NCBI GenBank assembly: GCA_020632555.1
Contig: JACKFI010000001.1
Location: 133,152-197,151 of the forward strand
DNA length: 64,000 bases
Direction: 5' to 3'
Origin: Candidatus Omnitrophota bacterium
Lineage (GTDB): Bacteria > Omnitrophota > Gorgyraeia > Zapsychrales > JANLHA01
Position 1 is the first letter of the stretch; the number at the start of each line of letters is the position of its first letter. Made by a program: the position numbers and the translations under genes. Shown in pieces: positions 25,257 to 38,804 of this stretch. The notes below the pieces were generated by a model. That model was not told where the DNA came from. It worked only from the letters and a program-made list of their open reading frames with translations, and ran no database searches.

Positions 25257-25497
25257 GCTTGTGAAATTTCCTAAAGTTTTAATCACTTTTCCCCTAATTC
25301 TACGTTGACTTGTGCAACATGACAAGTGAATTTACGAGCCTGAAAACATCCCTTGATCATTCTTTTCTCATGACTATTAATAGTGGTTTTATTGTCAAAA
25401 GGCGGGATAGAACTATCTTCGATAGGTTCAGGTTATGAAAGGTCTAGCCTGATTCCCAACCTGTTTAATAACAATATGTTGCGTGATGGTCAAAAAA

Positions 25498-25515
25498 ATG
25501 TGCCAGATTTGTGCC
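25498..25515 (-). promoter_or_regulatory. sigma54-promoter-like motif, copy 1
   Basis: Minus strand reads ATAGGCACAAATCTGGCACATTT (GGCAC-N5-TGGCA, compared with consensus TGGCAC-N5-TTGCA). About 240 nt upstream of the PAS-LuxR start and 40 nt downstream of the fic stop. Confidence 0.4.
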
Positions 25516-25556
25516 TATCCTAAAGAGCTACTTTTTTTGATGATAAGCCGACCTGA

Positions 25557-26690
25557 TTAAGTGTCCTTCAATGCGTAACTTGTGCTGCGCCCACCCGCGG
25601 TTTCTTTTACTAAAATACCCTTTTCAACAAGATCGAGAATATCGCGCAACGCCGTGTCCTGTGAACACTGGGTGATCTTCGCCCATTTAGAAGAAGTGAG
25701 CTTGCCTTCAAAACCATCAAACAACTTATTGATGATCATCTTCTGCCTCTCGTTAAGGGATTGGGCAGGATGAGATTCCCAAAAACGCGCTTTCTTAAAT
25801 ACACCCGACAAAGTATTTTCAGTTGCATCCAACGCCCGACCCAAACAGCTCAGGAACCACACAAGCCATGGCGTAATATCAATGCCGTCTTTTGTGGCAC
25901 GGTTACTTTTCTGTGTTTTTTCAAGAATATCATAATAGGCATTCCGTTCCTGCCGGATCTGATTCGACATGCTGTAAAAACGCTCCCGGCTGCCGTCGGC
26001 ACGTGCCAGTTGCATATCGGCAATAGCCCGGGCAATTCTTCCGTTACCATCATCAAAAGGATGAAGTGTCACAAACCACAAATGCCCAATACCAGCTTTG
26101 AGCACAGGATCTAAATCCTTTGTGAGCGAAATCGAAGTGTTAAACCATTTCAGAAATTCCTTCATTTCACTTTTAAGACGGTTGGCCTGCGGTGCTTTAT
26201 AATGAACCTTCTCCCGGCCGATAGGACCAGACACAACTCTCATGGGACCATGCTTATCGTCGCGCCAATCAGCCACTGTAATTTTATGCATTCCGCTTCT
26301 ACCGGTTGGGAATAAACTGGCATGCCAGCCAAACATTCGATCCTGCGTAAGGGGCTTGTCAAATTTCTGTGTGGCATCGAGCATCATTTCCACCACTCCA
26401 TCCACATGACGATCAGAAGGCACAAGTCCACCGATGTCCATGCCCAGCCTGCGTGCAATGGATGACCGCACTTTGGCAGGGTCAAGAATCTCACCTTCAA
26501 TTTCACTACTTTTTAAAACATCAAGGGTGAGAGTCTGCAGGATTGCCTCGGAACGCAAAGAAAAACCCAATGCTTCCATTCTTCCAATCAGTCGCCCTTG
26601 GCGATTGCGGACAGTCCCCAAGATAGACGCGACCTTTTCGTGATCCCATGTCAATTTAGGCCAAATGGTTAATTCATGAATGTATTTCAT
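25557..26690 (-). CDS. Fic/DOC family protein (AMPylase-type) with N-terminal DUF4172-like region and C-terminal winged helix
   Basis: 377 aa. Fido motif HPFDDGNGRIARA. N-terminal WPKLTWDHEKV. C-terminal ..ALRDILDLVEKGILVK. Confidence 0.9.
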   Translation of the reverse strand: MKYIHELTIWPKLTWDHEKVASILGTVRNRQGRLIGRMEALGFSLRSEAILQTLTLDVLKSSEIEGEILDPAKVRSSIARRLGMDIGGLVPSDRHVDGVVEMMLDATQKFDKPLTQDRMFGWHASLFPTGRSGMHKITVADWRDDKHGPMRVVSGPIGREKVHYKAPQANRLKSEMKEFLKWFNTSISLTKDLDPVLKAGIGHLWFVTLHPFDDGNGRIARAIADMQLARADGSRERFYSMSNQIRQERNAYYDILEKTQKSNRATKDGIDITPWLVWFLSCLGRALDATENTLSGVFKKARFWESHPAQSLNERQKMIINKLFDGFEGKLTSSKWAKITQCSQDTALRDILDLVEKGILVKETAGGRSTSYALKDT

Positions 26691-26721
26691 GGCAAATTCC
26701 TGCGGTGAATAGTCTCATTAT

Positions 26722-26765
26722 TCTACGCATACTATGCGGAGAATATACCATGTTTTCTCCGCATA
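26722..26765. promoter_or_regulatory. Candidate operator upstream of fic
   Basis: Palindrome TCTACGCATA-c-TATGCGGAGA (26722-26742) plus a third half-site TCTCCGCATA (26756-26765), 30-75 nt upstream of the fic ATG. Confidence 0.35.
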
Positions 26766-26877
26766 CACAAGAGAGATTTAAATCTATATTGCTCCCTACT
26801 AAAAGAAAGCGTCATTGGATATAACGGCTATGTCCAATCATATCCAATTATTGAATCTTTCCATGAGATTTGAAACG

Positions 26878-26895
26878 ATGTGCCGGATTCCTGCC
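26878..26895 (-). promoter_or_regulatory. sigma54-promoter-like motif, degenerate copy 4, fused to an 18-nt palindrome
   Basis: Minus strand reads GTAGGCAGGAATCCGGCACATCG (3 differences from the 18-nt core). About 190 nt upstream of fic. Overlaps CCTGCCTACCGGCAGGCA (26890-26907). Confidence 0.25.
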
Positions 26896-26918
26896 TACCG
26901 GCAGGCAGGTGTGCCAAG

Positions 26919-37020: not shown

Positions 37021-37058
37021 TTACCTAACATATGTAAGGTTAACCTAACACGTAAAGT
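37021..37058. promoter_or_regulatory. Candidate operator upstream of the MNT/HEPN pair
   Basis: TTACCTAACATATGTAAGGTTAACCTAACACGTAAAGT: imperfect palindrome CCTAACAT/ATGTAAGG plus a repeated ACCTAACA, starting 6 nt upstream of the MNT start codon. Confidence 0.3.
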
Positions 37059-37346
37059 ATAACATTGTTTCCAGAACTGTCAAATTTATACTGCTCCACG
37101 GTGATATACCGTATTGTGTGTAAATTAACTGTCATCCCCGAAATTTTTTATCGGGGAACCATTTAAAAGTAGTAAAAAAAGGCGTATCTTTCTGTTTGGA
37201 AATGTTTAACCGGGTTGACCCATGTCAGCCCAGAACAGAAAGGATACGCCCATGTACCAAACATTTGATACTTTAAAACATCGCGGAGCCGGGTCAAGGA
37301 TTTCATTAATTATACCCAACCGAAAGATTTTTGGATCGATATTAAT

Positions 37347-38471
37347 ATGCATCTTAGAAAACTAACCAAAAGTTTTATTGAAGAAACTCTCGACGAAGAA
37401 ATGACCCAATATCAACAACGAGAAAAACATCAGCGGTTAAAGAAAATGATCGATTACCGAAACGGACATTATCAACGCAACCTCGATACGACCATCGGCC
37501 CTCTTGATAATATTGCCGTTCCGCGTTCACGAAGCGGACTATTTAAACCTACGGTTTTTAAGCGTTACCAAAGACGCCAAGAAGCTGTTAACACCGTCAT
37601 CTGCAATGCCTTCCTGCGCGGCATATCCACCCGTGAAGTCGCTGGCGCTTTAAAACCAATCCTTGACACCAACATCTCCGCTTCCGCCGTCTCACGAATA
37701 ACAAAATCTTTAAATGCCCAAGTTAAAGCATTCCATCAACGTCAACTGCTCGACGAATATCAGTTTTTATTCCTAGACGGTATTGCTATCTCAGTCAAAG
37801 GAGCGCTTAAAGCCAAGAAAATTCTTGTCCTAACTGCTTATGGCATTACGATCTTCGGTAAAAAAGAGCTCATCGCCTTTAGAATCTCTAACAGCGAGTC
37901 AAATCAAGCCTGCGAAGGATTTTTAAATGATCTATTTAAACGCGGCCTGCAAGGCAAAAACCTTAAATTGATTATCACCGACGGGTCCAAAGGCTTTATT
38001 AACGCCGTCGACCTCGTTTACCCTCACGTCAAACATCAGCGCTGCTGGGTTCATAAACTTCGTAATTGCACTAAACATCTTAAGAAATGCGATATTGATG
38101 CATTTAAAAATGATGCCCGCAAGATTTACAATGCCTCGACTCATCGAGATGCTGTCGCGGCTTTTAAGAGTTTACGCCAACATTGGGTCAAAGATTATCC
38201 GCAAGTTGTCAAACTCATCGAACAGGATTTAGATAGTCTTTTGGCTTTTTTAGAAATTCCAATCAAGGAACAATACCGCGAATTTATCCGTCGTCGAATT
38301 CGTACAACCAACATCATCGAGCGTTCATTCCGGGAAATCAGACGCCGCACCAGACCCATGGGATGTTTTGCAAATATTGATAGCGTCAGCAGGATTATTT
38401 ATGCGATATTTAATCGCTTAAACACCAAATGGCAGGAGAAACCTTTAACCCAATTTACACAATTTATTTGA
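37347..38471 (+). mobile_element. IS256-family (mutator-type) transposase gene; IS ends not delimited
   Basis: 374 aa. FLFLDGIAISVK, IITDGSKGFINAVDLVYPHVKHQRCWVHKLRN, TTNIIERSFREIRRR (DDE region). N-terminus somewhat short for the family. I could not identify convincing terminal inverted repeats. Confidence 0.8.
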
Positions 38472-38549
38472 CATTACCGCAAATTGAAAGGTGCGGTTAA
38501 AACAAGAAAACCCCGTCTCTCCTCGACGGAAAACAGGGTTTTATATTGG

Positions 38550-38563
38550 TTGCGGGGACAGGA
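38550..38563 (-). repeat. 14-nt duplicate of the tRNA-fMet 3' end
   Basis: TTGCGGGGACAGGA is identical to 38731-38744 (discriminator, 3' acceptor strand and start of the T stem), 181 bp from the intact gene. It runs directly into the palindrome CCTGCCTACCGGCAGGCA (38564-38581). Confidence 0.6.
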
Positions 38564-38695
38564 CCTGCCTACCGGCAGGCAAGTTTGAATGGTTTCGCGG
38601 CTTCGCTTACGCTCAACCATTTCCTCGCCTAACGGCTCGGTCACCTGCGCTCGCTTTCGCTCGCTGCACGTCCATTCACCCATCCCACTAATAAA

Positions 38696-38725
38696 TTAAG
38701 AAGGCCCCAATTGGGGCCTTCTTAA
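38696..38725 (-). terminator. Rho-independent terminator downstream of tRNA-fMet
   Basis: Perfect 30-nt palindrome TTAAGAAGGCCCCAATTGGGGCCTTCTTAA, 6 nt after the tRNA 3' end, followed on the minus strand by TTTATT. Confidence 0.7.
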
Positions 38726-38730
38726 TTTAA

Positions 38731-38804
38731 TTGCGGGGACAGGATTTGAACCTGTGACCTTCAGGTTATGAGCCTGACGAGCTACCGGGCTGCTCCACCC
38801 CGCG
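38731..38804 (-). tRNA. tRNA-Met (CAT), initiator-like
   Basis: rc = CGCGGGGTGGAGCAGCCCGGTAGCTCGTCAGGCTCATAACCTGAAGGTCACAGGTTCAAATCCTGTCCCCGCAA. Cloverleaf folds by hand. C1-A72 mismatch and close resemblance to E. coli tRNA-fMet. CCA not encoded. Confidence 0.9.

Follow-up and report, generated by a model that had tools for sequence, protein, structure and literature searches.

What has happened on the 3′ side of an initiator transfer RNA (tRNA) gene at which the shared gene order of related Omnitrophota genomes stops? The question is raised by a 64,000-nucleotide (nt) stretch of a Candidatus Omnitrophota bacterium (GenBank assembly GCA_020632555.1, contig JACKFI010000001.1, positions 133,152 to 197,151), here called the window, in which about 13 kilobases (kb) of accessory genes adjoin the initiator tRNA gene, tRNA-fMet. 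A preliminary description of the window had read these genes as a single genomic island, linked to the tRNA, old, partly decayed and probably immobilised. We find that the region at 25427–38804 is likely to be a decayed tandem array of integrative elements, built up at the single initiator tRNA gene beside enolase and divIC. Comparison with relatives indicates a composite array of at least three or four segments, not one island.

The tRNA-Met(CAT) gene occupies 38731–38804 on the minus strand (ARAGORN and Rfam; Rfam tRNA score of 64.5 bits). A C1×A72 mismatch, read from the sequence, is typical of bacterial initiators, and the gene does not encode CCA. Its 3′ end points toward lower coordinates, and the accessory region begins directly at that end. 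The order enolase–DivIC–tRNA-fMet is kept in around 40 related loci; an FtsH-like protease, enolase, DivIC and the genes beyond them are syntenic in all relatives, and synteny stops at tRNA-fMet. The identity of the gene and this conserved order mark it as the candidate integration target. The closer relatives were found by a protein search with the band-7 protein of the region (89–92% identical), and their contigs were then fetched. Loci L178 and L194 belong to one sister genome (GCA_964474085.1); the enolases of the sister genomes represented by L194 and L195 are 92–93% identical.

Three pieces derived from tRNA-fMet, all in one orientation, lie on the 3′ side of the gene. Two fragments had been noted before, of 14 nt and 12 nt near the proximal and distal limits of the region, and both are exact matches at the positions and in the orientation first given. 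The proximal one is the 14-mer of the tRNA 3′ end, TTGCGGGGACAGGA, repeated in the same orientation at 38550–38563 (181 bp from start to start). On the tRNA strand it comprises tRNA positions 61–74 and is followed by an encoded CCA, as in most related tRNA-fMet genes, and then by a terminator hairpin; the displaced terminus with its CCA spans 38547–38563 and the terminator, T1, 38490–38546, both on the minus strand. The T1 stretch aligns best directly downstream of the intact tRNA-fMet of locus L002 (score of 36 compared with 16 ± 3 for shuffles, of which 1 in 2,000 was equal), and shares 86% identity over 44 nt with the corresponding stretch in L195. Three features place the repeat above chance: its start coincides with the tRNA terminus, its distance is 181 bp, and it carries both CCA and a terminator of the kind seen in relatives.

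Between the tRNA and this repeat lies a 167-nt stretch, segment A (38564–38730, minus strand), bounded by the 14-nt direct repeat. It has a palindromic terminator of its own (around 38692–38729) and, at its distal end, an 18-nt guanine–cytosine (GC) hairpin (38564–38581). Homologs of segment A come after tRNA-fMet 3′ ends in L178 (80% over 122 nt) and L185 (72% over 190 nt); no similarity was found to the sequence downstream of tRNA-fMet in L002. As T1 is relative-like and segment A matches post-tRNA sequence elsewhere, we read the 14-mer as a displaced tRNA end and segment A as the probable left-end remnant of the newest element. The hairpin, CCTGCCTACCGGCAGGCA, recurs exactly once more in the window (26890–26907, minus strand; BLAST E = 1e-4), so that one copy marks where segment A meets the displaced tRNA end and the other lies between the genes AbiEii and Fic. 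We considered it as an island boundary and rejected it as not specific, the same 18-mer being present in 14 unrelated stretches of IMG/VR against roughly 2 expected (a rough estimate).

At the far end, the 12-mer TTCAGGTTATGA of the tRNA anticodon arm lies at 25427–25438 (minus strand, tRNA orientation), with the motifs GCCTGA (25447–25452) and GGCGGGA (25401–25407) around it, as had been described. This distal remnant, TCATAACCTGAA, corresponds to the anticodon loop and the 3′ strand of the anticodon stem and is cut off after 12 nt. On its own it is at chance level, the outcome of formal alignment that the preliminary description had named as refuting: it does not extend in a Smith–Waterman alignment, shuffled tRNA equals its score in the window in 21 of 40 trials, and Rfam finds nothing tRNA-like at the site even at E ≤ 10. 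Its neighbourhood nevertheless rescues it. In blastn searches, 25427–25515 matches L178 twice, at 12549–12638 (92%, E = 3e-29) and at 17916–18004 (89%, E = 7e-25), and both L178 matches continue as a tRNA-fMet 3′ half from the very anticodon-loop nucleotide at which the 12-mer of the window starts. The first of these halves is complete (tRNA positions 33–74 with CCA, then A-like sequence); the second, L178b, is cut after about 30 nt (the 3′ halves joined to arms in GCA_964474085.1 measure 30–45 nt). The two successive junctions are 5.4 kb apart and share an 86-kb contig and a strand with the intact tRNA-fMet of that genome, from which they lie around 47 and 52 kb further on. In L180, a diverged arm with the same first 17 nt extends for about 78 nt to the same crossover and is followed by a 42-nt tRNA half that is 100% identical to the tRNA of the window, by CCA and by a T1-type terminator.

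The 12-mer together with its flank is therefore beyond chance, because the flank matches L178 sites that continue into tRNA-fMet 3′ halves. The 77 nt beside it (25439–25516, minus strand) can be recognised as a conserved attachment-site arm, present here at full length, and the L178 and L180 junctions as those expected at the far end of elements whose crossover is in the anticodon loop. Its exact match and its place in the L178 and L180 arm alignment make the 12-mer the outermost recognisable attachment-site (att) remnant of the region. Our first model, in which only the 181-bp unit was derived from integration and the 13 kb were native, was abandoned once this homology was seen, and a verdict on the 25.4-kb fragment by shuffling and Rfam statistics alone was superseded by the comparative evidence. 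The same homology bears out the earlier proposal of an old, partly decayed integration linked to tRNA-fMet.

The first 19 nt of the arm, TGGCACAAATCTGGCACAT, show that the region is subdivided. They occur three times in the window (0.04 expected in the motif scan), always on the strand of the tRNA and inside the region, at 35953, 30013 and 25516. The copy nearest the tRNA, J1 (35935–35953, minus strand), is a truncated arm that begins 23 nt after the HEPN stop codon. The middle copy, J2 (29976–30013, minus strand), retains 38 nt from the start of the arm, motif included, and begins 4 nt past the stop codon of a 141-amino-acid open reading frame (ORF); its identity to the two L178 arms is 92% and 89%, and the remainder of the arm and the tRNA part are deleted. 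The third, J3, opens the full arm beside the 12-mer. In every case checked, the motif sits in a spacer and closely follows the stop codon with which a module's last gene ends (2–70 nt for the gene ends that were checked). J1 is the exact point at which the window and L185 become homologous, and before it the window has MNT/HEPN genes and L185 has restriction–modification methylases; after rtcA, the motif directly follows the 141-amino-acid ORF in the window and RlaP in L178. Gene content upstream of the motif varies between genomes and the sequence from the motif onward is conserved, such that the motif or arm at 35953, 30013 and 25516 separates modules that differ among the window, L178, L180, L185 and L186. 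These internal arm remnants point to an array: an integrated region was rightly recognised, but not as a single unit of about 13 kb.

The motif consists of two TGGCACA repeats one helical turn apart. Arm-type integrase sites often show repeats one helical turn apart. It is a pair of direct repeats and not an imperfect palindrome. An exact-match scan of 183 other loci and a looser scan of L194 and L195 did not find it, and it has been seen only inside tRNA-fMet arrays. An 18-mer of the motif gave 6 matches in viral contigs, in unrelated contexts and with one inside an integrase coding sequence, which we judged to be near chance.

From these pieces we infer a mechanism, an order of arrival and a series of deletions. 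The attachment site of each element would consist of the arm of about 77 nt that starts with TGGCACAAATCTGGCACAT, joined to a tRNA-fMet copy that runs from the anticodon loop as far as the 3′ end. A tyrosine-type integrase would recombine this site with the tRNA gene in the anticodon loop, whereupon the copy carried by the element would restore the gene and the old 3′ half would move to the far end, behind the arm. The 3′ part of the present tRNA (positions 33–74) would thus have been supplied by the last element to integrate, and repeated rounds would have stacked the elements with the oldest furthest from the tRNA. Deletions would later have removed the integrase or integrases and trimmed the att sites, and an IS256-family element would have inserted beside the displaced tRNA end. 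The remains of this history would be the 167-nt stub at 38564–38730, the displaced end with its terminator at 38490–38563, the arm stubs at 35953 and 30013, and the full arm with 12 nt of tRNA at 25427–25516.

Read from the tRNA, the region accordingly comprises segment A; the displaced tRNA end and terminator; IS256; MNT/HEPN and J1; the rtc genes, the 141-amino-acid ORF and J2; and PDC-S63, AbiE and SoFic followed by J3 with its 12 nt of tRNA. Pfam, PADLOC and NCBIfam, by which gene content was called, agree with the IS256, HEPN/MNT, rtc, AbiE and Fic genes first listed. The IS256-family insertion sequence (37068–38483, plus strand) adjoins T1 and has an intact transposase (ORF at 37347–38471; Pfam Transposase_mut, 1e-89; NCBIfam NF033543 (transpos_IS256), 319.7 bits against a cutoff of 150, with the model covered nearly end to end). 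Its imperfect terminal inverted repeats match at 14 of 18 positions (37068–37085 and 38466–38483), and no 8-bp target duplication was found flanking the element. MNT (36386–37015) and HEPN (35977–36384) form a toxin–antitoxin or defence pair at 35977–37015 on the minus strand (Pfam NTP_transf_2 and HEPN; PADLOC PDC-M05A; NCBIfam MntA-like). The 141-amino-acid ORF (30018–30443, minus strand) has no match in Pfam, PADLOC or NCBIfam and sits where RlaP sits in relatives, RlaP following rtcA in L178 and L186. A defence cassette (25557–29918, minus strand; Pfam and PADLOC) comprises DUF6933/PDC-S63 (28569–29918), AbiEi (27859–28452), AbiEii (26919–27866), the second hairpin copy and Fic/DUF4172 (SoFic; 25557–26690). 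The MNT/HEPN pair, this cassette and the Rtc module make up a cargo of defence and stress-response genes.

The Rtc RNA-repair module (30547–35842, both strands; Pfam) consists of rtcR (34244–35842, plus strand; RtcR, 2e-80, and Sigma54_activat, 4e-47, with a CARF-like N-terminal domain and a sigma-54 AAA+ domain) and, on the minus strand, rtcB (32603–34120; RtcB, 4e-102), a conserved tRNA-like RNA (around 32331–32517), band-7 (31557–32306; Band_7, 2e-30) and rtcA (30547–31560; RTC, 3e-81). The module is 76–92% identical at the nucleotide level in L178, L180, L182, L185 and L186, with different flanks in each. Protein identities to L178 are 93% for RtcR, 94% for RtcB, 89% for band-7 and 81% for RtcA, compared with 92% for enolase. 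As rtc is about as similar as core genes, the segment appears to be old and was probably inherited vertically within the clade though its neighbours changed.

The structured RNA between rtcB and band-7 is about 190 nt long, with a canonical T-arm (GGGGTTCAAATCCCC, 32421–32435) and a long closing helix; the spacer in which it lies (32300–32610) has a fold z-score of −6.8, and the RNA is conserved in five genomes with four compensatory pairs. ARAGORN reports a class-II-like cloverleaf at a relaxed threshold only, and Rfam has no match. The RNA fits the predicted ‘band-7-associated tRNA’ of RtcB operons. A hairpin-containing insertion of 77 nt (32526–32602), directly after the rtcB stop codon, is found in the window and is absent from L178, L180, L185 and L186. 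In L186 (5237–7231), a Ro60-like gene in two ORFs and three tandem tRNA-like repeats with a T-arm lie between rtcR and rtcB, additional to the band-7-linked RNA. RtcR is a sigma-54 activator, yet the rtcR–rtcB spacer looks sigma-70-like: in the window (34121–34243) and in L178, L180, L185 and L186, TTGACA-17-TATGCT is conserved, and no GG-N10-GC is conserved upstream of rtcB across the five genomes.

The distal limit had been placed where accessory genes give way to PAS-LuxR and lipid genes. The outermost recognisable att remnant does lie there, at 25.4 kb, but this may not be the final boundary. In L178, the gene that comes next beyond the outermost att remnant is an ortholog (77% at the nucleotide level) of 17070–17616 in the window, and the block at 17.6–25.4 kb may therefore be further lineage-specific or inserted DNA.

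Repeats are also found at other points of the window. Two 116-nt tandem repeats lie directly upstream of tRNA-fMet (38813–39044) and share 92 nt that are 99% identical; kinship of segment A with them was rejected, local alignment being no better than for shuffles. A short-read assembly of the source sample breaks inside these repeats (L001 ends at around 39021), and many independent assemblies of related genomes (L003, L016, L031, L092, L109, L196 and L197) stop shortly before tRNA-fMet or no more than about 150 nt beyond it, breaks that are consistent with repeats or with strain variation at the locus. In L017, from a more distant member of the Omnitrophota, a 21-nt direct repeat of the tRNA-fMet 3′ end including CCA lies 108 nt downstream (7072–7276) and is preceded by a hairpin, in the same layout as 38547–38581 of the window. 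Elsewhere in the window, tRNA-Phe (57639–57714, minus strand) is followed by an 81-nt tandem duplication within 57504–57714, the units of which start with the last 12 nt of the tRNA, GTCTCGGCACCA. Upstream of tRNA-Thr (56952–57024, minus strand; span to 57484) there are 2.6 copies of a 183-nt repeat with a half-period of 92 nt, and each half-unit carries the first 9 nt of the tRNA, GCTGGCG(T/C)A. An ORF of 1,224 amino acids (59377–63051) consists mostly of near-identical 159-nt and 156-nt tandem repeats (98% and 93% matches). The block at 17617–25400 is GC-poor (0.35–0.43) and encodes a lipocalin, DUF1295, SnoaL, an LPG-synthase C domain, HMG-CoA reductase, a chalcone-isomerase-like protein and PAS-LuxR.

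Several points weigh against a decayed tandem array. Among the ORFs of at least 100 amino acids between 314 and 42720, Pfam found no integrase, excisionase or remnant of either, and no Phage_integrase match. An integrase pseudogene, which had been suggested as something to look for, was rejected as a candidate: tblastn with three integrases against the whole window gave a best E of 0.3, and the largest non-coding gap in the region, 331 nt, leaves no room for one. The absence of an integrase gene, as first described, thus stands, and no integrase could be linked to the arm. Recombinases do occur at the same tRNA in relatives. L195 has an AlpA-like gene and a 361-amino-acid integrase 2.6 kb downstream of tRNA-fMet, followed by a type I restriction system, and in L194 a tyrosine recombinase of 299 amino acids lies 112 nt beyond the tRNA and precedes GmrSD, a resolvase and a Panacea-type module; in both, defence genes come next. 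The L194 recombinase family (XerD-like) is 60–75% conserved across the Omnitrophota, so that this protein may be a housekeeping Xer enzyme; we rejected it as a clear island integrase and leave it ambiguous. An IntI-type integrase was not found in the window and the junction motif is not an attC-like palindrome, as would mark an integron.

No genome with an empty site was found among the relatives compared; the nearest differ in content at the same tRNA. Exact-pattern searches gave no uninterrupted tRNA with T1 in metagenomes and no predicted attP in viral contigs. Synteny with species-representative genomes and JGI metagenomes was tried and was uninformative: the best enolases were 76–79% identical, with nothing shared downstream of the tRNA. 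Exact look-ups of the window proteins returned short contigs of the same strain only. All of the genomes compared are metagenome assemblies, which are error-prone at repeats. Composition fails as island evidence, as the GC content of the 1-kb windows across 25–39 kb is 0.39–0.48 against about 0.42 for the window overall, and the tetranucleotide distance of this interval is within the range of the window. The rtc module, as conserved as core genes, may be long-resident chromosome and not cargo. J1 and J2 have no tRNA part, and their reading as probable att remnants rests on the first 25–38 nt that they share with the arm. Either of the terminators next to the tRNA, T1 or the A type, may be the ancestral one. 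The lack of an integrase has a second bearing: because of it, and because the att sites are broken, the array is probably now immobile and fixed in the chromosome, in agreement with the immobilisation first proposed.

How do other explanations fare with the same evidence? One integration of a single 13-kb island, later decayed and with incidental internal motifs, would account for tRNA-derived fragments near both limits and for accessory genes throughout. We consider it quite unlikely, as the arm remnants at 35953 and 30013 divide the region into modules, and these occur independently, with different rtc neighbours in L178, L180, L185 and L186. The far fragment of that proposal holds through the L178 arm, whereas the 14-nt copy closes 181 bp only (the 167-nt remnant), and L178 itself has two successive junctions. 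The integration-derived part might instead be confined to the 167-nt insertion, the rest being variable chromosome or a defence island formed in another way and the J motif and arm being regulatory or promoter repeats. A displaced tRNA end with CCA and a relative-like terminator does stand between segment A and the remainder, no compositional signal sets the region apart, the rtc module looks vertically inherited, and the J motif fits the sigma-54 GG-N10-GC spacing. We nevertheless regard this as unlikely: in other genomes two arm variants at three sites are fused to tRNA-fMet 3′ halves at one nucleotide, the arm of the window terminates in 12 nt from the same part of the tRNA, a promoter at J1, which faces the 3′ end of the convergent rtcR, would have nothing to drive, and among the loci scanned the motif was seen in tRNA-fMet arrays only.

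The view that the distal 12-mer arose by chance and the tRNA fragments by local replication slippage draws on the shuffling result, on the silence of Rfam at the site and on the repeats at tRNA-Phe and tRNA-Thr, which carry tRNA ends of 12 nt and 9 nt. It is extremely unlikely given that the flank of the 12-mer is homologous to sequence that runs into full tRNA-fMet halves, that the sequences after the two 14-mer copies differ and so are not a tandem duplication, and that segment A homologs adjoin tRNA ends in other genomes. The arm-plus-tRNA-half units could alternatively be working genes in which a sigma-54-type J promoter drives a spare tRNA half used by RtcR and RtcB. The motif, as TGGCAC-N5-TGGCA, has the expected GG-N10-GC spacing, and strict sigma-54-like matches in the window are limited to J1, J2 and one site at 23401. 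The L180 unit, which adjoins rtcR, runs from J through a leader and a perfect tRNA 3′ half to CCA and a terminator; the rtcR–rtcB spacer has no recognisable sigma-54 promoter; and RtcR is reported to respond to damaged tRNA (PMC7790460). The tRNA parts, however, are not under selection: only 12 nt survive in the window and about 30 nt in L178b, and J1 and J2 have none; the units lie at the borders of variable modules downstream of the tRNA, as att sites do; and the −12 element is off consensus. We hold working genes to be very improbable. Only slightly broader, and still a long shot, is the idea that the 19-nt motif might be either a promoter of a spare initiator-tRNA 3′ half serving RtcR and RtcB or a lineage-specific recombination site for cassette exchange; if the former were true, the spare half could help to rebuild initiator tRNA after a toxin or phage nuclease has cleaved its anticodon loop. 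Serial integration at tRNA-fMet followed by decay is the explanation that we favour.

On that explanation, the initiator tRNA beside enolase is, in this group of Omnitrophota, a hot spot for piled-up defence and RNA-repair cassettes. Its signature, the TGGCACAAATCTGGCACAT arm located about 78 nt upstream of a crossover in the anticodon loop, offers a way to map islands in fragmented metagenome assemblies, and the array may help to explain why many assemblies break at tRNA-fMet. The locus is also a worked example in which a 12-nt tRNA fragment at chance level was shown to be real by relatives, which matters for programs that need long fragments and an integrase.

Elements of this picture have counterparts in known systems. 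The order of the rtc module is that of the RtcB, band-7 and tRNA-like-RNA operons (Burroughs and Aravind 2016, as cited in bioRxiv 10.1101/312249) and of Salmonella rsr-yrlBA-rtcBA, to the extent that these sources describe them: RtcR diverges from rtcB, which is followed by a structured T-arm RNA, band-7 and rtcA. It differs from the operons outlined there in a cloverleaf seen by ARAGORN only at the relaxed threshold and lacking an Rfam match, and in a spacer that is sigma-70-like, not sigma-54. As in defence islands, several systems (SoFic, AbiE, PDC-S63 and MNT/HEPN) and an insertion sequence lie within 13 kb, but serial integration at one tRNA gives the clustering here a visible structural cause. 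The ICESt1 family of Streptococcus thermophilus, in the outline given by the citing papers (PMC3146451 and PMC5704250), likewise has att-flanked segments without recombination or transfer genes and undergoes site-specific accretion and deletion. The att sites here, by comparison with that outline, are truncated, which makes present-day mobilisation unlikely, and this genome shows no sign of a partner element.

Anticodon-loop crossovers, tandem arrays and integrase-less members are established for islands in tRNA and transfer-messenger RNA genes (PMC4383910 and PMC3146451), and an attP centred on the anticodon is the commonest class in Islander (PMC4383910). Islands of the Islander type regenerate the tRNA and leave the displaced 3′ fragment as a direct repeat at the far end (PMC4383910; Williams 2002), as here, and Islander recognises tandem arrays (PMC4383910). 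It requires an integrase for each island, however, of which the window has none, and the 12-nt distal fragment would escape a search of this kind, being recognisable through the conserved arm only. The ssrA islands of Dehalococcoides (PMC3146451) are also stacked downstream of a single-copy essential RNA gene; their borders are likewise direct repeats of the 3′ part of the gene with a conserved motif just upstream, many of them carry no integration module and are regarded as fixed or as mobilised in cis, and the region is highly variable between strains, all as seen here. They use a T-loop-like site and a serine recombinase and carry dehalogenases, whereas the present array would use an anticodon-loop crossover in an initiator tRNA and a tyrosine-type enzyme, and carries defence and RNA-repair genes between more eroded att remnants. 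That elements accrete in tandem at a tRNA gene and then decay is well established, and the finding extends these known principles to a little-studied phylum.

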